From assembly GCF_988243305.1 (NCBI RefSeq), contig NZ_OZ547136.1: a DNA stretch of 64,000 nt. One strand, written 5' to 3'. Below, piece by piece: positions 6,623 to 51,000 of this stretch; the stretch's first letter is position 1, and each line of letters starts with the position of its first letter. The position numbers and the translations under genes were made by a program. The notes under the pieces were generated by a model. It made no database searches, had not been told where the DNA came from, and saw only the letters and a program-made list of their open reading frames with translations.

Positions 6623-6674
6623 CTTTATCACTCCTGGGTGTGAATTAACGTTTTAAAATCTTTTGCTGTCTGGT

Positions 6675-6723
6675 GTGCCGGATGTTTTGTCAGATGCGGC
6701 AAGAACGCCTTATCCGACCTACG
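6675..6723. repeat. REP-like palindromic element
   Basis: tgccggatg...cagatgcggcaagaacgccttatccgacctac, REP-type sequence in the purC upstream intergenic region. Confidence 0.5.
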
Positions 6724-6775
6724 TCCGACAAACAAATTTAGTGCGAATTACCGCTAAAATCGCGTTTTCCTGCCG

Positions 6776-6791
6776 ACGCACACGTTTGCGT
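6776..6791. promoter_or_regulatory. candidate PurR operator (PUR box) for purC
   Basis: acgcacacgtttgcgt, a near-palindrome with one mismatch to the acgcaaacgtttgcgt-type PUR box, about 150 bp upstream of the purC start. Confidence 0.5.
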
Positions 6792-6834
6792 ATCATATCA
6801 GAAAAAAGGGCCGGATGACTCCAGCCCTGTATTT

Positions 6835-23870: not shown

Positions 23871-24932
23871 TTATTCTTGCGCGATTTGCCCATCGGGCCA
23901 GGCGTGAATCACGGCTTTGATCAGCGTCGCCAATGGAATGGCGAAGAATACGCCCCAGAATCCCCACAAACCACCGAAGATCACTACTGATAAAATAATG
24001 ACCAGCGGATGCAGGTTAACCGCTTCGGAGAACAACACAGGTACTAACAGGTTGCCGTCCAGCGCCTGAATGATCAGATACACCGCGAAGCAGCTCCAGA
24101 ATTCCGTGCCAGCACCAAACTGGAATAGCGCCACGCCAACCACCGGAATGGTCACCACAAATGCACCAATGTACGGAATAAGTACCGAGAAGCCGACCAG
24201 CACCGCCAGCAGCAGCGAATAGTTCAGCCCGAAGAGTAAGAATCCCAGCCAGGTGGCGATCCCCACCACGATCATCTCCAGCACTTTGCCGCGGATATAG
24301 TTGGTGATTTGTTGATTCATCTCCTTCCATACCTGTCCTGCCAGTCCACGGTTACGTGGCAGCACCCGGCGAACGGCGTTCAGCATCTGCTCTTTGTCTT
24401 TCAGCAGGAAGAAGACCATCAATGGCACCAGCACCAGATAGACAGCTATGGTCAGCAAACCGACCAGCGAGGCGAGGGAAATTTTCACCACCGAATCGCC
24501 CATGGTCAGCATCCGACTGCGCATATTTTCGGCCATTGCATCAATAATGCCCGCATCCATCAACGCCGGATAGCGGCGCGGCAACGTGGCGGCAAAGTCA
24601 GAAAGCTTATTGAGCATCCCCGGCATATCGCGAATTAAGTAGATGCCCTGCTGCCAGGCGATAGGCAATACCACGAACGCCATCAGTAGCAATATACCGA
24701 CGAAAACCACCAATACAATCGACGTCGCCCAGCGGCGGGAGCAGCCAATAGATTGCAGGCGCACGGTTGGCCATTCCAGCAAATAGGCCAGCACAATAGC
24801 CACCAGCAACGGAGCAAGCAGGCCACTAAAGAAAAAGATAATGCCAAATCCGGCAACTAAAATAACCAGCAAGGCAATCGCTTCCGGGTCGCTAAAACGG
24901 CGGCGATACCATTGCATCAACATTTCGAGCAT
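23871..24932 (-). CDS. perM: AI-2E family putative permease PerM (YfgO)
   Basis: 353-aa polytopic membrane ORF; conserved synteny. Confidence 0.8.
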   Translation of the reverse strand: MLEMLMQWYRRRFSDPEAIALLVILVAGFGIIFFFSGLLAPLLVAIVLAYLLEWPTVRLQSIGCSRRWATSIVLVVFVGILLLMAFVVLPIAWQQGIYLIRDMPGMLNKLSDFAATLPRRYPALMDAGIIDAMAENMRSRMLTMGDSVVKISLASLVGLLTIAVYLVLVPLMVFFLLKDKEQMLNAVRRVLPRNRGLAGQVWKEMNQQITNYIRGKVLEMIVVGIATWLGFLLFGLNYSLLLAVLVGFSVLIPYIGAFVVTIPVVGVALFQFGAGTEFWSCFAVYLIIQALDGNLLVPVLFSEAVNLHPLVIILSVVIFGGLWGFWGVFFAIPLATLIKAVIHAWPDGQIAQE

Positions 24933-27093: not shown

Positions 27094-27795
27094 CTACAGT
27101 TTCAGAATTTCTTTCACAAACGGAATGGTCAGCTTACGTTGCGCGGTAATCGACGCACGATCCAACTGATCCAACGTCATAAATAACGTGCGCATCTCTC
27201 TGTCGAGCCGCTTCAGCAAGAAACGCCCCACATCTTCCGGCAGTTCAAAACCACGCAAACGCGCGCGTAACTGTAGCGCCTGCAACTTATCTTCATCAGA
27301 AAGTGGCTGCAATTTGTAGATCTGCCCCCAGTCGAGACGCGACGCGAGATCCGGTAATCCAAGATTCAACTGCCGCGGTGGACGATCGCCGGTGATTAAC
27401 AACCGTGTTTTGCCCGATTCCAGAATTCGATTGTAGAGATCGAAAATCGCCATCTCCCACAACTCATCGCCTGCAATACACTCAATGTTGTCGATACAGA
27501 CCAGCGACAAATGCTCCATACCGTCGAGCACTTCCGGAACAAACCAGGTGCGTTTATCCAGCGGGACATAGCCCACCGCATCGCCACGCTGCGACAATTC
27601 CGCGCAAGCCGCGTGCAGCAGATGGCTGCGCCCCGCGCCTTCGCGTGCCCAGAGATAGATGTAACCGCTATGTTCCTGACGCAGCACGTTTTGCAGCGCG
27701 GCCAGTAAAGAGGAGTTATCCCCCGGCCAGAAACTTGCAAAGGTTTCGTCGTCAGGAAGATAAAGTGGCAAAGAGAGCTGTGCCGGTGTTTTCAG
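27094..27795 (-). CDS. hda: DnaA-inactivating AAA+ protein Hda (RIDA), CTG start
   Basis: ORF 27094..27840; the conserved Hda N-terminus (L/M)[21 protein letters not shown] begins at a CTG codon (minus strand, plus coordinates 27793-27795); Walker-like box [10 protein letters not shown]. Confidence 0.8.
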
Positions 27796-27889: not shown

Positions 27890-29179
27890 TTATTTGTCTG
27901 TTATATCCGCGTCTTCTGCGTCCAGCACCACTTCTTCAGGGCGCAGCACACTAATCATTTTGAAGATCAAACTTAAGCCGATACCGACGATGGTCGCCAG
28001 CGCCATACCTTTCAGCTCCGCCGCGCCGATGTTTACCTTCGCGCCACTGACACCGATGATCAAAATCACGGAAGTCAGGATCAGGTTCTGTGCTTTGTTG
28101 TAATCCACTTTCGATTCGATCAAAACACGAATACCGGAAGCACCGATGACACCATAAAGCAGCAGCGAAACGCCGCCCATCACCGGCAATGGGATCATCT
28201 GGATAGCAGCAGCCAGTTTACCGACGCAGGAAAGCAGGATAGCGAAAATCGCCGCCCCGCCGATAACCCAGGTACTGTAAACACGGGTGATCGCCATCAC
28301 GCCAATGTTTTCCCCGTAGGTGGTGTTTGGCGTGGAGCCAAAGAAGCCGGAGATCACGGTCGACAAGCCGTTAGCAAACATCGAACGGTGCAGACCTGGA
28401 TCGCGCAGCAGATCTTTTTTGACGATATTAGCCGTTACCACCAGGTGCCCTACGTGTTCGGCAATAACCACTAACGCCGCTGGCAGAATAGTCAGAATGG
28501 CAAACCACTCGAAGCGCGGCGTATAGAGGGTTGGCAGCGCAAACCAGTGAGCATTAATAATCGGCGTGGTATCGACAATTCCCATTGCGAAAGAGAGCGC
28601 GTAACCCACCAGCACGCCAATTAAAATCGGGATAATTGCCAGGAAACCACGAAACAGCACGGAACCTAAAACCGTGACTGCCAGGGTGGTAATTGAGATG
28701 ATGATGGTTTTGGAGTCTGGCGTTTGCCCTTCAGCCGGGAGTAAACCTGCCATACCGGCAGCTACGCCCGCCAGCTCCAGACCGATGACGGCAACGATTG
28801 CGCCCATTGCCGCAGGTGGAAACAGCACGTCCAGCCAGCCGGTCCCCGCTTTCTTCACGATAAAAGAAACCAGGCAGAACAGCACGCCGCACATAATAAA
28901 GCCGCCCAGCGCGACTTCATACCCTAACGGCAACAGTAACAATACCGGTGAAATAAAGGCAAAGCTGGAACCAAGATAAGCCGGGATTTTCCCTTTACAG
29001 ATGAAGAGATACAGCAGCGTTCCTATACCGTTAAATAACAGTACAGTCGCCGGGTTAATATGAAATAAGACGGGCACCAGGACGGTTGCACCAAACATGG
29101 CGAACAAATGTTGCAAACTAAGCGGGATTGTCTGTAAAAGTGGCGGTCTTTCACTCACCCCGATAGCACGGCGCGTCAT
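27890..29179 (-). CDS. uraA: uracil:proton symporter (NCS2 family)
   Basis: ORF 27890..29221; start at the internal Met ([20 protein letters not shown]), 429 aa. Confidence 0.9.
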
Positions 29180-29264: not shown

Positions 29265-29891
29265 TTATTTCGTACCAAAGATTTTGTCACCGGCATCGCC
29301 GAGGCCCGGAATAATGTATCCGTGCTCGTTCAGTCCCTGGTCAATCGATGCAGTATACAGTTCGACGTCCGGGTGCGCTTTTTCCAGCGCAGCGATACCT
29401 TCTGGCGCAGCGACCAGCACCAGAACTTTGATGCTGCTGCAGCCCGCTTTTTTCAGCAGGTCGATGGTCGCGATAACGGAACCACCGGTTGCCAGCATTG
29501 GGTCAACGATCAGCGCCATACGCTCATCGATGTTAGAAACCAGTTTCTGGAAGTACGGTACCGGCTCCAGCGTTTCTTCATTACGGTACATACCGACGAC
29601 GCTGATACGCGCGCTCGGAACGTTTTCCAGCACACCGTCCATCATCCCAAGACCCGCACGCAGAATTGGCACAACGGTAATTTTCTTACCTTTGATCTGG
29701 TCGATTTCTACCGGGCCGTTCCAGCCTTCGATAGTTACTTTTTCCGTTTCGAGGTCGGCGGTCGCTTCGTAAGTCAGCAGGCTACCCACTTCGGAAGCGA
29801 GTTCGCGAAAGCGCTTGGTGCTGATATCTTGCTCACGCATCAGTCCCAGCTTGTGTTTGACGAGTGGGTGTTTGACTTCCACGATCTTCAT
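29265..29891 (-). CDS. upp: uracil phosphoribosyltransferase
   Basis: ORF 29265..29918; start at the internal Met ([16 protein letters not shown]), 208 aa. Confidence 0.9.
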
Positions 29892-30136
29892 ACTCTTTCT
29901 CCTTTGAGGGGCAGCCACAAAAAAAATCGACGGATTATACCTCCTTTCTTCAAGCCGGCAATATTATTTTCGTTGACTTTAGTCAAAATGATAACGGTTT
30001 GAGATAAAGTTATTTTGTATTCAAATGGTTATGGAAGAAGATTATTCCATCCGAAAACGATCCTTTGCCCTGGTACAAGTATTCTTTCGCCGCGCGCCTG
30101 GGGAAAAGACGTGCAAAAAGGTTGTGTAAAGCAGTC

Positions 30137-30152
30137 TCGCAAACGTTTGCTT
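30137..30152. promoter_or_regulatory. PurR operator (PUR box) of purMN
   Basis: tcgcaaacgtttgctt, close match to the palindromic PUR box, about 65 bp upstream of the purM GTG start. Confidence 0.65.
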
Positions 30153-30196
30153 TCCCTGTTAGAATTGCGCCGAATTTTATTTTCTACCGCAAGTAA

Positions 30197-31251
<1,055 letters not shown>

Positions 31252-31252
<1 letters not shown>

Positions 31253-31890
31253 TGAATATTGTGGTGCTTATTTCCGGCAACGGAAGTAATTTGCAGGCAA
31301 TTATTGACGCCTGCAAAACCAATAAAATTAAAGGCACCGTACGGGCAGTTTTCAGCAATAAGGCCGACGCGTTCGGCCTTGAACGCGCCCGCCAGGCGGG
31401 TATTGCAACGCATACGCTCATCGCCAGCGCGTTTGACAGTCGTGAAGCCTATGACCGGGAGTTGATTCATGAAATCGACATGTACGCACCCGATGTGGTC
31501 GTGCTGGCTGGTTTTATGCGCATTCTCAGCCCGGCGATTGTCTCCCATTATGCCGGGCGTTTGCTGAACATTCACCCTTCTCTGCTGCCGAAATATCCCG
31601 GATTACACACCCATCGTCAGGCGCTGGAAAATGGCGATGAAGAGCACGGTACATCGGTGCATTTCGTCACCGATGAACTGGACGGTGGCCCGGTTATTTT
31701 ACAGGCGAAAGTCCCGGTATTTGCTGGTGATACGGAAGATGACATCACCGCCCGCGTGCAAACCCAGGAACACGCTATTTATCCACTGGTGATTAGCTGG
31801 TTTGCCGATGGTCGTCTGAAAATGCACGAAAACGCCGCGTGGCTGGATGGTCAACGTCTGCCGCCGCAGGGCTACGCTGCCGACGAGTAA
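31252..31890 (+). CDS. purN: phosphoribosylglycinamide formyltransferase 1
   Basis: 212-aa ORF overlapping the purM stop; formyltransferase motifs. Confidence 0.9.
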
Positions 31891-39883: not shown

Positions 39884-39923
39884 TCGATGTAAGTAACTTC
39901 AAGCCTATAATTCTTGAAGATAA

Positions 39924-39954
39924 AAAACCCTCTGTAGTAACAGAGGGTTTTGTT
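39924..39954 (+). terminator. intrinsic terminator after yfgI
   Basis: aaaccctctgtagtaacagagggttttgtt: 10-bp stem, 6-nt loop, T-run. Confidence 0.7.
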
Positions 39955-40210
39955 CATTCATAGTGCAGGGATCAAAATCATTCCCACTCAGCTATCAATG
40001 AGAAAATAAAATATAAATAAATCAATGCCTTGAAACAAACCACTTAGCAGATACCACGAAAAATACCATGTCTCAATAATAGAGCTGTCTACAGGCTGTT
40101 CAGACGAACAATATGGCCGCTCTACTCCTAATAGAGTCCTTAGCTCGGTCACATCACTAATTTCAACATAGATGTGAACAAAATGAGGCATCAACGCACC
40201 TATTCAGTTA

Positions 40211-41725
40211 GTGTATTTGATATCGTATGTGGCAACAAAAAATGGAGTTACAATCTTGAAAGTAAGCGAGTTATCTAGCCAAATTGGCCGACTTTACGGC
40301 TTAAACAACATCAACATAATTATGGGCCGAAACGGTGCGGGAAAAAGTCGTTTCCTTCGTGATATCGAACAAACAATCAGCCAGAACAAGCAGCAATTTT
40401 ATGTCCGGTATGTAAGTCCAGAGCGAGCAGGATCGTTCAAGCGTGATGGCACCGTCCTCACAAATATGAGCGACAACCCCGAATGGCTGAGGCACACTCG
40501 GGCAGTTAATCAGGCAAGCAACTTCAAAGCTGCATCGGCTATGCTATTTCGCGAGGCCGAGACGCTTTACTTACGTCGACTTGCCAATACTCCGGAAATT
40601 CGAACTGATCTAACGCGAAACTTTCAGACAGACCGATTAAGTAAAATTAATCAGCTTCTCACTAACATTTCGCTCGAGATGGGTAATGTCGATTATGAGT
40701 TTCGATCACTTGTAGATGGTCAGATTATTGATCCGGCCCAAATCAGTAGCGGTGAATCGGAAGCGGTTGCATTAGCCGCGGAAATCATCTATTTCTTCGA
40801 CACAATAGATCCGGAGAAATTCAACGTACTCCTCCTCGATGAGCCTGATGTACATCTGCACCCCGACCTCCAAGCTAGACTGGGCAAGCTGATAATCAGT
40901 ATGCTCGACGAATTTAGAACACACGCGAACAGTATTGCCATATGCTTATCCACCCATAGTTCCCCGCTCGTCTGTTCTCTTGCCGCCTCCCCATATGTAT
41001 CAATCGGCACGAAGAGCTTTGCAGTGAATGAAATCTCATTGATACCGGCCAGCGATGAACTTCGAAAGATTGCACCATTCTTCGGGCACCCCCTATCGCT
41101 TTCTCTTAGCGAAGACGCTGCATTAATTTTGGAAGGAGAGGACGACGAACGAGTCTGGCAACAAGCGGCCAGAACATCACAGGGTCGAATAAAAATCTTT
41201 CCCGTACTAGCAGGTAGCGTAGATCAACAGAGTCAACTTGAGGATTTTTGCGTAGACCTCCTTAGTACACTCTATGACAATCCAATCGCCTTTTCCCTTC
41301 GTGATGGCGATGGTGTAATCAACGAGTCGCTTGAACATCGCCTACCTCTTAAACGCTATCGCTTACGATGCTACGCTATCGAAAATGTTCTTTTGACTGA
41401 TTCATGCCTTGCAGTAATGAATGTTACATGGGTGGAATTTGTAGACGCAGCCAAAAAATGGGTTGAGGATAATCAAACACACTCCGACATAGCGTTGATT
41501 GCAGAACTAATGGAATCGAACGACCGATTGCGTCACAAGAAGATCAAGAAAATCCGCCAACTCGTCTGTGCTATTGTTGAGTGTAAAAAACCTTGGGAGG
41601 TAGTAGTTGGACAAGCAATCGGGGCATTGACCAGAGAAGACCTTGAAAACTCGAATATGTTGATCGATTTTCTTGGAGGAGAGATGGTCAGCGACGTCAT
41701 CTTCAGGGACGCAATAAACCCATGA
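40211..41725 (+). CDS. ABC-type (AAA_21-like) ATPase with C-terminal TOPRIM/DUF4435-like acidic region; candidate OLD/PARIS-like anti-phage nuclease (accessory)
   Basis: Walker A GRNGAGKS, signature-like ISSGESEA, Walker B/D-loop LLLDEPDVHLHPDLQ, H-loop LSTHS; C-terminal about 200 aa carry LEGEDDE and RDGDG acidic motifs; no TM segments; probable true start TTG at 40256 preceded by ggag. Confidence 0.55.
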   Translation: MYLISYVATKNGVTILKVSELSSQIGRLYGLNNINIIMGRNGAGKSRFLRDIEQTISQNKQQFYVRYVSPERAGSFKRDGTVLTNMSDNPEWLRHTRAVNQASNFKAASAMLFREAETLYLRRLANTPEIRTDLTRNFQTDRLSKINQLLTNISLEMGNVDYEFRSLVDGQIIDPAQISSGESEAVALAAEIIYFFDTIDPEKFNVLLLDEPDVHLHPDLQARLGKLIISMLDEFRTHANSIAICLSTHSSPLVCSLAASPYVSIGTKSFAVNEISLIPASDELRKIAPFFGHPLSLSLSEDAALILEGEDDERVWQQAARTSQGRIKIFPVLAGSVDQQSQLEDFCVDLLSTLYDNPIAFSLRDGDGVINESLEHRLPLKRYRLRCYAIENVLLTDSCLAVMNVTWVEFVDAAKKWVEDNQTHSDIALIAELMESNDRLRHKKIKKIRQLVCAIVECKKPWEVVVGQAIGALTREDLENSNMLIDFLGGEMVSDVIFRDAINP

Positions 41726-41740
41726 GAATGACCTGATACT

Positions 41741-42136
41741 ATGACCACGATTGATCCGCCCTCATGGTATCAGTATTTATTTTATAACCCGCCTCTCAAT
41801 ACACCAAGAGATTGCGGTAAAGTGGAGCAGCATGATTACCAGCTTTATCTGGCGATAAATGATATTGAGCATACGAAAACGAAAGCAATGTCATCTAAGA
41901 CCAATAGTATCTGCGAGCAGTTCCATAAAACGATACTGAACGAGTTTTATCAGGTGACGTTCCGCAAAAAGTTATATGATGATCTTGAAGCATTACAATC
42001 GGTTCTTGATGAATGGCGGGTTCACTATAATAATGAGCGAACCCATCAGGGAAAAATGTGCAGTGGCCGAACGCCGATGGAAACGTTACTTGATGGAAAG
42101 CACATCTGGGATGAGAAAAACTTAAGCCAGATGTAA
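41741..42136 (+). pseudogene. remnant of a DDE (rve integrase-core) transposase, C-terminal fragment
   Basis: 131-aa ORF containing ...TNSICEQFHKTILNEF...WRVHYNNERTHQGKMCSGRTPMETL, the characteristic C-terminal segment of rve-type transposases; no N-terminal HTH or full DDE triad. Confidence 0.6.
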
Positions 42137-42229
42137 TCTGACAGATACCTTTATAAATAGCCGGTAATTGTCAGATCAGGTCTGATCTTATACAACTTAA
42201 CTGTGTTATGAGCAATACTGAGGATAGAT

Positions 42230-43000
42230 ATGGAACCAGAGAAATTTGCTGAAACTGCAATAGGATTTACCAAAAGCCCTCTTGGTATCATTGCACTCTT
42301 TATTGTTCTCGTTTATGGATTTGCCTCTTTCGTCGTTGGCTTTGGTAATGGCTTATCAGAGCATATAGCTCCCCTTATTTATTTCATGGTTTTCTTTCCT
42401 GTCATTGTGTTTCTTGGCTTTCTCTGGCTTGTTGCGAAACATCATAATAAGCTTTACGGGCCGTCAGATTTCAAAGATGAAAATAATTTTTTAAGAGCGC
42501 AAATAGCTACAGCAGCATCATTGACCGCCGCCACAGCAAAACAGCCTGAAAATAGTGCAGGGGTCACTGAAAGCCAACTGCGAAAAATCGTCAACGTTGT
42601 ATCCAATGCAAAACGGCAGAGTAAGCATGAAAAATGGCGAAATCGTATTTTATGGGTGGATGATCGACCAGAAAATAATGTTTACGAAAGACAGGCATTT
42701 GAGGCACAGGGAATAGAGTTCGCTTTAGCTCTTTCAACTGACGAAGCCTTAGAATTGTTAAAAACAAATAAGTTTGCAGCTATTATTTCGGATATGGATC
42801 GCAAAGAAGGGGCGCAAGAAGGTTATGTCTTACTAGAAAGATTACGCGCAATGGGAGACAAAACTCCTTTTATGATCTATGCGTCCTCAGATCTACCAGA
42901 GCACAAGAAAATGGCGAGAGAAAGAGGTGCAATTGGCTCCACTAATCGAGCAGAAGAACTCTTTCAAATTGTCATGGGTGCGATTACCAATGGCTCATAA
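42230..43000 (+). CDS. membrane-anchored stand-alone receiver (REC/CheY-like) domain protein (accessory)
   Basis: ATG preceded by gagga; two predicted TM helices near the N-terminus; C-terminal about 120 aa align by eye to CheY (ILWVDDRPEN / ISDMDR / TPFMIYASS); AT-rich codon usage. Confidence 0.55.
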   Translation: MEPEKFAETAIGFTKSPLGIIALFIVLVYGFASFVVGFGNGLSEHIAPLIYFMVFFPVIVFLGFLWLVAKHHNKLYGPSDFKDENNFLRAQIATAASLTAATAKQPENSAGVTESQLRKIVNVVSNAKRQSKHEKWRNRILWVDDRPENNVYERQAFEAQGIEFALALSTDEALELLKTNKFAAIISDMDRKEGAQEGYVLLERLRAMGDKTPFMIYASSDLPEHKKMARERGAIGSTNRAEELFQIVMGAITNGS

Positions 43001-43220
43001 CAAAGCCATTAAATTCGCCCCCTACGGCTACGGTTGCCGGGCGCTCACAACGGCCAGTATCTCATTTGTCGATTTGATCGATCTCATTGTAAGCACTTCC
43101 GGCTAGACTATTTTGGAATACCGCCATTTTGTTGGTAATGGCTTTTATCTTTAGGCCATAGCCGATGTTATAGAGTTACGGCCTTAAAAATAGAAGTCAT
43201 ACACTCAATGAAAAACCAAT

Positions 43221-43250
43221 AAAAAATGCCAGTCAGCAAACTGACTGGCA
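43221..43250 (-). terminator. intrinsic terminator of guaA
   Basis: On the minus strand tgccagtcagtttgctgactggcatttttt: 10-bp stem plus a U-run immediately after the guaA stop. Confidence 0.7.
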
Positions 43251-43294
43251 TTAAAGTTAGTTGGAAAGGCTTAATTTACTATTTATAGCCAGTC

Positions 43295-46407: not shown

Positions 46408-46538
46408 GGGCAATATCTCGACCAGAGTGGTTAATAAATATTGCCGCGGCATTATACAGAGCGTAACCGATTGCATCTACCCCTTTTTGCAAAAAATGCT
46501 TGCTATCCCCGGAGGGCGGGTTACTATCGACTGAATAA

Positions 46539-48004: not shown

Positions 48005-51000
48005 TTACTGGAAGCAGGTCACCAGACCCGGTTTATTCATTAGCGTGATACTACAATCCTGTGCTCCAGTGCCTTCGTCCATTCCACACTGTTGAGAGGA
48101 CAAATAAGGAAAACTTGGTGAAGACGGCCATCCCAGTGAATTAAAAACAGTGTGCAACAACTCTAATTCATTGTATGTCGGTGCATTTTCTATGCTGCCA
48201 CACTGCCTTGCAATATCCCATTTACTGGCATCAATGATATGTGCAGAAGCCCAGTTTTCGTAGTTAATAATCGGTGAGGATACGGGATTAGCCCCGGACG
48301 GCAATTCTGTCGTTAACAACGGTCGATGTAGCGATTTACCATTCACCACTACAGTGTCTGCCATATGTCCCCAAAAGTGCGCCGAGGAAACATTCGGGCT
48401 GGTTGGTACCGTAAAAATAGCGTCCAGCGTGTCTGTCGCGGAAGCGTAATTAGCCAGAGTAACCGTCAGTGGCGTTTTATAACCAGGGGTATTATCCTGG
48501 CGGAGCGTAAAACTTGCCGTCCCATCCGCGCCTGTCATGCCACTAATGGTATTACCGCTTTCACTCAGCGTAACAGCCGAACCAGATAACGGCTGAACGA
48601 TGAGATCGTCCATCGCCACCACATCACCATACAACGTCGCCCCAGCGTTACGCGGCGATGCATCGCCACGTTTCAAAGTAAATTCCACATTCGGTACCGT
48701 ATTCCCGGCGCTGTCTTTCACCGTCACGGTAACGGGCATGGCTTCGCCTTTTTTCACTTTCGCCGCCTGAATAGCTGCGTCAAACGCTGTTGAGGTCAGT
48801 GTGACGCTGGAAACCGTTGCGCGCGCAGACACCAGACACGCCTGATAAGCGGCATTACCATTCAATGTCGTTGTGCCATCTTTCATATTGAGCGACTGAT
48901 TTTTACCATCTGTAGTCTTATCCTGCGCCCACCAGTAATAATAAACTGACCAGCCAGTTTCCGTCGTAAGGGTGTTATTGGGATAACGTTGATACAGTGA
49001 CTTCATATCGCTGAGCAACGGTTGCCGGGCTTCCTCACAAGGGCTGAGGCTGGCATTTGCTTTAGTGGTTGACGAAAAATAGGGCCAGTCCTCATTATTG
49101 TTATTGGTTTTATTTACCCCGGAGGTCGATGGCAGCTCCTTCCACAATTTCGGTCGTTCAAAGACGGTTCCATTTGCCGCTGTCACCGTTTCTGGCATAT
49201 GACCCCAGTAGTCGGCATCCTGGGCGTCAGGGCTGGTGACCACGGTAAATATCAGGTCCAGGTTTGACGTGATCTGCGGATCTTGTGCAAGCGAGACCGT
49301 AAACGGCGTTGCCAGGCCGGTGGTGGCGTTTTGCGTAACATTGAACGTCACTGTGCCATCACTGCCGGTAAAACCAAGCCATTTTGCCGTATCCTGAGCA
49401 AAGGAAATACGGGTTGCTGTCGGTGTGACGACATCTACAATAAGATCATCTGCCAACGATGAGGGCCTAATTCCTGAACGACTTTTCGCCTGCGCCCGCT
49501 GAAGCGTCACGCCCTCACCACTCACCAGGTTGCCATTTTGGTCTTTTACTGTCACGACTAACGGGATTGTCTCGCCCTTTTTCGCCGATGCCGAAGGTGT
49601 GCCGCCGTTACTGGCGGTTTTCGTCTCATCAAATGCTACTGAAGTCAGGGTAACGCTTGACGGCTTAGAGTGAGGCTGTGCCAGGCAGAGCATTAGAGCA
49701 ACCGGAGAGAGTGCGGATGATGCTCGTCCCGTGCTTAGGTTAAAGACCTGATAATACCAGGAGCTACCATTGGAGTTAAGTAATTCATAAATCCACCAGT
49801 TTCCTGACGCTATCGGCAACCCCAGATCTTTCGTTAACGCTCCGTTTGGGTGATCGTCATATAACCCCTGCAATTCGCTGAGGCGCGGTTGATATTCCAG
49901 CGAACAATCTGCCGTCGCTTTTTGAGTACTATATATATATGACCATGTCTCATTATTACCGTTTACCGAGCTCCCCGTAGTCGCTTCCGCTGCCAGTAAT
50001 GGGCGCTTGAAGGTCACGCCTGCCGAACTGGTAAACGTTTCCGGCATATGGCCCCAGTATTTCGCTTTTGGCGAATCCGGGCTGGTTATCACCGTGAAAA
50101 TGACATCCAGCGTGACGCTTTTCGAGGTATCGCGCATGAGTTCTGCGCTGAGCGGCGTTGACAGCCCATAACTGCTATTCTGGCTGACCTCAAACGTAGC
50201 TTTACCATCGCTCCCTGTCTTCAGAAGAGCCTGCGTCCCATCCCCATACAAGATTGACGTTACCCCAGTAGGTTCCACAGGTATGATGGTAAGATCATCT
50301 GCAGAGGCATCGTACGCAGCTTTAGCGCGGTTCAGCGCAGTCCCTCGTTTAAGGTTAAAGCTGGCACCTGGCAGTGGATTGCCTGCGCTATCTCGCACCG
50401 TAACCGTCATCGGGATAACCTCTCCCTTCTTCGCTGTTGCGCTGGGCCTGCCATCATTGCTGGCCGTTTTCGTTGCATCCTCCGCCGTTGAGGTCATTTC
50501 AATAGAAGCCGCCTCTGGATGAGGGTTTACCAGGCACAGCATTAATGCCGAGGTGGTTGAAGACGCTCTTCCACTTGATCCATTTAACAGATAAATATAT
50601 TGATCGTACCAGTTACCCGCATATGCCACCATGTCGTAAGCCCACCAGTAGCTATTTACCGGAATACCCAGATCGGTCTTTATCGCACGACTTGGGTGTT
50701 CGTCGTACAATGCCTGTAGTTCGCTTAACAGTGGTTGATAATGTACATCGCACCCGCTTTTATCGATATCCCCCTTTGTTGCCGATCTCAACACGGCCCA
50801 CTCTTCATTGTCTTCTATAAACGACTGGCCCGACGATCTTTCAGCAGAGAGTAAGGGGCGTTTGAAGGCAGTACCAGAACGCGTAGTGAACGTTTCCGCC
50901 ATATGCCCCCAGTAACTTGCCAGGGGGGTATCCGGGCTGGTTATCACGGTAAACATCACGGGTAATTTGTTGGATTCCAGGCTCGACTGATAGGCCTGAG

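Follow-up and report, generated by a model that had tools for sequence, protein, structure and literature searches.

The purMN operon and purC of Escherichia coli K-12 are each controlled by an operator for the purine repressor PurR. Both operators were described around 1990, and He and co-workers reportedly placed the purMN and purC operators of K-12 in the pur regulon in that year. The PurR dimer, when loaded with hypoxanthine or guanine, kinks the central CG step of the operator palindrome, and repression at purM and purC is reported to be lost when purR is deleted from K-12. A genome-wide ChIP-chip study gave the binding motifs as TCGCAAACGTTTGCTT for purM-purN and ACGCACACGTTTGCGT for purC (Table 1 of Cho et al., 2011; PMC3159470). 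With adenine, the log2 enrichment of PurR was 2.08 at both purMN and purC, the maximum reported, and without adenine it was 0.98 at purMN and 1.52 at purC (PMC3159470). The same work found that the genes of the IMP pathway are completely repressed by PurR and that PurR sites are generally located between the -35 and -10 elements (Cho et al., 2011; PMC3159470). The upp-purM intergenic region, when cloned at high copy number, produced a phenotype that was attributed to titration of PurR, and deletion of AAACGTTTGCTT from the clone weakened this phenotype (PMC3266220).

The stretch of DNA analyzed here (the window, 64,000 nucleotides) is part of an E. coli chromosome. Positions 29500-31500 had matches covering 80% or more of their length in 5,424 of 5,426 complete E. 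coli genomes and were 100% identical to one complete genome, in which they are annotated as upp, purM and purN. The gene order in the window is tmcA-ypfJ-purC-bamC-dapA ... hyf ... yfgO-bepA ... uraA-upp / purMN-ppk-ppx ... guaAB / xseA. The gene for the repressor, purR, is located outside the 64-kb window; at the species level, it was present in 5,424 of the 5,426 complete genomes. The boxes upstream of purM and purC, which the earlier note had read as PurR operators, are almost certainly the operators of the purMN operon and of purC, identical to the K-12 sites; K-12 identity, ChIP-chip motifs, the positions of the transcription start sites (TSS) and cross-species conservation all agree on this assignment. 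Both operators are already known and the finding is not novel. Its discovery value is small, as these are two founding operators of the E. coli pur regulon that were confirmed genome-wide in 2011. The coordinates of the features are collected in Table 1.

Table 1. Features of the window related to PurR control, with the evidence behind each assignment.
Feature	Positions	Strand	Evidence
purC coding sequence, 237 aa	5909-6622	-	ORF, translation, K-12 annotation
purC 5' untranslated leader, 163 nt	6623-6785	-	5'UTR length from TSS table
purC PUR box, predicted PurR operator, ACGCAAACGTGTGCGT on purC strand	6776-6791	-	sequence, K-12 identity, ChIP-chip motif, TSS position, PWM, conservation
Predicted purC promoter, TGaTATGAT	6792-6800	-	TSS data, sequence; directly upstream of operator
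bamC intrinsic terminator (gene upstream of purC)	6807-6828	-	terminator scan
Weak PurR ChIP-chip motif, yfgO/bepA divergent region, CCGGAAGCGATTGCCT	24872-24887	-	ChIP-chip table, unchanged; PWM 13.8
purMN PUR box, predicted PurR operator, TCGCAAACGTTTGCTT	30137-30152	+	sequence, K-12 identity, ChIP-chip motif, TSS position, PWM, conservation
purM promoter -10 hexamer, TAGAAT	30160-30165	+	TSS data; invariance in 41 Enterobacterales
purM (GTG start)	30215-31252	+	ORF and RefSeq annotation of identical stretch
purN	31252-31890	+	ORF and RefSeq annotation of identical stretch
purMN operon, predicted to be under control of the purM box	30215-31890	+	ORFs, RefSeq annotation
guaBA PurR operator, ATGCAATCGGTTACGC on guaB strand	46461-46476	-	sequence, ChIP-chip motif, PWM, guaB TSS

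The earlier note had reported tcgcaaacgtttgctt at 30137-30152 and acgcacacgtttgcgt at 6776-6791, and both strings were found exactly there. Its count of one or two mismatches is correct for the 16-mer consensus ACGCAAACGTTTGCGT, from which the purM box differs at two positions and the purC box at one, but not for the 12-mer core GCAAACGTTTGC that it quoted, from which the two boxes differ at none and one, respectively. The central CG is kept in both. Each box is identical to K-12 MG1655 at all 16 positions, and several nearby intergenic bases differ. Comparison with the mapped E. coli sites, which the note had proposed as a check, returned the exact ChIP-chip strings at positions that agree with the mapped promoters. 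The RefSeq annotation of K-12 contained no binding-site features.

A simple sigma-70 consensus scan did not recognize the purM promoter and detected no -35/-10 pair at the purC promoter, and published TSS data were therefore used instead (supplementary TSS table of Kim et al., 2012; PMC3415461). The purM start is K-12 position 2619175, with a 5'UTR of 44 nt and an upstream string ending in GTTAGAATTGCGCCG (Kim et al., 2012; PMC3415461), and was transferred to 30172 (G) in the window. Relative to this published single-base start, the purM operator spans -35 to -20, which is the -35 hexamer plus most of the spacer. Based on the 17-nt spacing from the -10 hexamer, the -35 hexamer is most likely TCGCAA (30137-30142), the left end of the operator, and the non-consensus T at position 1 of the box is the first base of this hexamer. 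The T-run in the purM 5'UTR (30180-30184) is one base shorter than in K-12, giving a leader of 43 nt rather than 44 nt.

On the other side of the intergenic region, upp starts at 29928 on the minus strand, and the start is followed by a run of eight T (GATTTTTTTTG) that we take to be the known element of UTP-sensitive reiterative transcription. The published FNR site TTGACTTTAGTCAA is present upstream of upp at 29973-29986. PurR control of this divergent gene was considered and is unlikely, with the box located 209 nt upstream of the upp start.

The purC start is K-12 position 2595803, with a 5'UTR of 163 nt and an upstream string ending in CTGATATGATACGCAAA (Kim et al., 2012; PMC3415461). It was transferred to 6785 (A), which is base seven of the box when read on the purC strand, and the purC operator thus spans -6 to +10 relative to the published single-base start and covers the start site itself. 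The TGaTATGAT sequence would serve as an extended -10 element for purC, and the T-run of the bamC terminator leads straight into this -10. The earlier note had placed the box before purC, and it is indeed upstream of the gene, which is encoded on the minus strand; it is not adjacent to it, however, but 153 nt from the ATG, at the start site of a long, REP-bearing leader. This distance is due to an insertion of about 102 nt (about 6649-6750) between the operator and start site on one side and the ribosome-binding site on the other. The distance from box to ATG is 153 nt in purC loci of the E. coli type versus 49-53 nt in most relatives. A REP hairpin was predicted within the insertion at about 6676-6730 (centroid fold), and the leader as a whole folded no better than shuffled sequences (z = -1.28). 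Other lineages carry different inserts of 73, 84, 116, and 158 nt at the same place in the leader. The purC leader seems to be a hot spot for insertion, and the REP-bearing insertion of about 100 nt could have added a layer of post-transcriptional control that is absent from close relatives. An Rfam scan of the purM and purC control regions gave no matches. The only Rfam match above the gathering score in the window was naRNA4 (RF02564; 1985-2062, 85.7 bits), a REP-derived family of nucleoid-associated RNA.

The strength of the sequence match was evaluated against the background of the whole window. Matches to the 12-mer core with up to two mismatches were not enriched (3 found vs. 5.8 expected). 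With up to one mismatch, 2 were found vs. 0.46 expected, a number reached by 8 of 100 shuffles, and the 16-mer consensus with up to three mismatches gave 3 matches vs. 0.57 expected. Because the 12-mer core at up to two mismatches was not enriched, mismatch counting with this core was dropped as a test and replaced by a leave-out position weight matrix (PWM), by position and by conservation. The PWM was built from 24 of the 28 PurR motifs of Cho et al. (2011), with the four sites in the window excluded. The purC box scored 18.45 and ranked first among about 128,000 positions, and the purM box scored 16.67 and ranked third in the window; the 24 training sites themselves scored 11.6-25.0, a range that includes both boxes. 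In Markov-1 random sequence as long as the window, the top score was on average 15.6 (sd 2.1), and the window contained three matches of at least 16 bits vs. 0.52 expected. The PWM scan, which the earlier note had also proposed, placed both boxes near the top of the window without being convincing alone. Taken by itself, the sequence match is suggestive for both boxes, not decisive, and within reach of chance in 64 kb.

The position of the boxes makes the operator call decisive. Each box is located in the short intergenic region that immediately precedes a pur gene, and matches of at least 16 bits occurred in about 0.5% of control segments of 316-416 bp. We estimate the joint probability that both boxes would fall at pur promoters by chance as about 2.5e-5. 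The analysis has methodological value in this respect: a PWM score is not enough on its own in a 64-kb window, and promoter-resolved position together with cross-species footprinting cleanly separates real operators from chance matches.

Four further sites in the window resemble PurR operators to different degrees, or have been reported as bound, and a fifth outscored the purM box. The guaBA box, for which the published ChIP-chip motif is GCGTAACCGATTGCAT (Cho et al., 2011; PMC3159470), had a PWM score of 15.04 (rank 4 in the window) and, counted from the guaB start at 46444, occupies -32 to -17. The weak ChIP-chip motif of the yfgO/bepA region falls within yfgO as annotated, 45-60 nt into the coding sequence. 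The earlier note had listed PurR control points for the two pur units only; these were confirmed, but the list was incomplete, as the guaBA and yfgO/bepA regions are also published. A third match to the core at 50031-50042 (GTAAACGTTTCC, PWM 10.8) was rejected as a chance match inside a large adhesin gene with a score within noise, and a match to the 16-mer at 27253-27268 (three mismatches, PWM 12.4) was below the noise ceiling. The second-best match in the window, ACGGCAACGATTGCGC at 28788-28803 (17.9 bits), is internal to uraA. Of 32 species, 29 had the encoded peptide GAIVAV without change, two had GAIIAV and one had GAIVSV, and the DNA motif was kept in only 5 of the 32, with PWM scores from -4.9 to 18.0. 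A role as a roadblock operator was rejected, given that the synonymous positions drift and that the site is not among the ChIP regions. The uraA match is a by-product of coding, and as a negative control it shows that the conservation of the purM and purC boxes is not trivial.

In the region beside guaA, yfgI and guaA are separated by a segment of about 3.3 kb (39884-43294) that K-12 lacks and that only 27 of 5,426 complete E. coli genomes carry. Encoded in this segment are an AAA_15/AAA_21 ATPase of 504 aa (best PADLOC matches PDC-M01A, AriA, and PtuA, E 1e-17 to 1e-12), the remnant of an integrase core, and a protein of 256 aa that has a receiver domain at its C terminus and had no PADLOC match. 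Judged from these domain matches, the segment may be a small defence-type islet; an assignment as an IS21-type element was wrong.

Conservation of the purM box was analyzed in 80 loci from different species, ranging from Escherichia albertii to Vibrio, Pasteurellaceae, Aeromonas, Shewanella and Alteromonadales. In 65 of the 80 species, the 300 nt preceding purM contained a box that scored 14 bits or more; among 1,497 control segments of matching size taken from these loci, the figure was 0.6%. Among the 80 loci, no purM box of at least 14 bits was found in Alteromonadales, Shewanella, Orbaceae/Gilliamella and one Pasteurellaceae genome (Spirabiliibacterium). When the 41 Enterobacterales loci were anchored on the box, the information content was 1.84 bits per position in the box vs. 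0.26 in the 45 nt upstream. The TAGAAT -10 hexamer was invariant in these loci and always 7 nt after the box, and the non-consensus T at the first position of the box was fixed in 40 of the 41. The box was also conserved in Vibrionaceae, and there its distance upstream of the TAGAAT -10 exceeds that in Enterobacterales and Pasteurellaceae by about 10 nt, which shifts the repressor by about one helical turn relative to the promoter. The Vibrionaceae boxes were located about 50-90 nt upstream of purM.

For purC, metagenome contigs were scanned with a degenerate, box-independent pattern derived from codons 26-37 of the gene, and the count covered 80 non-duplicate loci that extended upstream for 200 nt or more. 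A box of at least 14 bits was present in 76 of these loci, compared to 0.8% of 1,508 controls. Nearly all relatives with a PurC identity of about 92% or higher had the E. coli sequence of the box, its imperfect half-site included, and relatives at 86-90% PurC identity had A(A/G)GTAAACGATTGCGT in place of the E. coli-type box. The flanks and the length of the leader vary among relatives while the box stays. The order of bamC terminator, short gap, box, leader and purC was conserved among relatives, and a stem-loop with a T-run was detected upstream of the box in almost all of them. The asymmetric GTGTGC half-site of the purC box, which contains the start site, was unchanged in every distinct Enterobacteriaceae sequence with an E. 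coli-type box.

The purM box holds the -35 hexamer and the purC box holds the start site, and their conservation could partly reflect promoter function. It is very improbable that core-promoter function is the only cause and that binding of PurR is incidental or weak. The purM box does start exactly at -35, where the nearly fixed first-base T fits a constraint on the -35 element, and the purC box does contain +1, but all 16 positions of the purM box are conserved, including the spacer from -29 to -20, a part that is little constrained in sigma-70 promoters. The conserved purM sequence is, moreover, a palindrome with a central CG, it stays conserved in Vibrionaceae despite the additional distance of about 10 nt to the -10, and ChIP occupancy was at the reported maximum and responded to adenine. 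A tentative extension, which we regard as possible but rather unlikely, is that both constraints act together: the deviations from the consensus would then be selected, through a role in the promoter or the initial transcript or through tuning of affinity, and would not be neutral drift. Control by the REP leader would be a separate addition.

It is extremely improbable that the boxes serve primarily another LacI/GalR regulator with a similar half-site, such as the PurR paralogue RbsR, or CytR. A palindrome with a central CG is an architecture common to LacI/GalR operators in general, but the protein tagged for ChIP was PurR, the motif extracted from the ChIP peaks fits both sites, the targets are purine-biosynthetic genes with an adenine-responsive signal, and the titration phenotype was attributed to PurR. 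Chance resemblance of both palindromes to the PurR consensus, with no regulatory role, could appeal to the lack of enrichment of the 12-mer core and to the expectation of about 0.5 PWM matches of 16-18 bits per window, one of which exists in uraA, but it is effectively refuted by ChIP binding in K-12 and by conservation across dozens of species in which the flanks are not conserved, the boxes being intergenic, upstream of pur genes and overlapping mapped promoters.

Assignment of the two boxes as PurR operators leads to the following model for their function. PurR, whose gene is expected at another place on the chromosome, would act as a dimer of the LacI/GalR family. Accumulation of hypoxanthine or guanine would lead to binding of the PurR-corepressor complex to each 16-bp imperfect palindrome. 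At purMN, the bound repressor would cover -35 to -20 and block initiation; at purC, it would cover -6 to +10, directly after the extended -10, with the same outcome. In both cases the repressor would occupy DNA that RNA polymerase must contact and would thereby block initiation, and repression probably occurs by steric exclusion of the polymerase. When purines are scarce, the corepressor would leave, PurR would dissociate and the genes would be expressed. Binding and its dependence on adenine hold for the identical sequences in K-12 and, by this identity, would be expected to apply to the present strain.

Among the systems that share a name or a motif with these operators, PurR and the PurBoxes of Bacillus and Lactococcus have the same role in the control of purine synthesis, but the regulator is a non-homologous, PRPP-sensing protein with a different DNA motif (PMC10912719) and is not the system present here. 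The intragenic operators of purB and purR, which are of the roadblock type, use the same repressor and motif. They are located inside transcribed or coding DNA and block elongation (PMC3159470), whereas the purM and purC boxes overlap the core promoter and would be expected to block initiation. The operators of guaBA, purF, purL, purHD, and purEK, which lie over the -35 element or the spacer, belong to the same family of 16-bp palindromes. The guaBA box (-32 to -17) resembles the purM box (-35 to -20) in its placement, and the purC operator (-6 to +10) is further downstream than operators of the -35/spacer type. The closest are the purMN and purC operators of K-12, which agree with those of the window in 16-bp sequence, flanking genes and distance to promoter elements. 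Differences from K-12 are confined to one base directly after the purC box, a few bases in the REP and in the terminator loop, and the shorter T-run in the purM 5'UTR; the control regions are 98-99% identical and the operators themselves are without differences.
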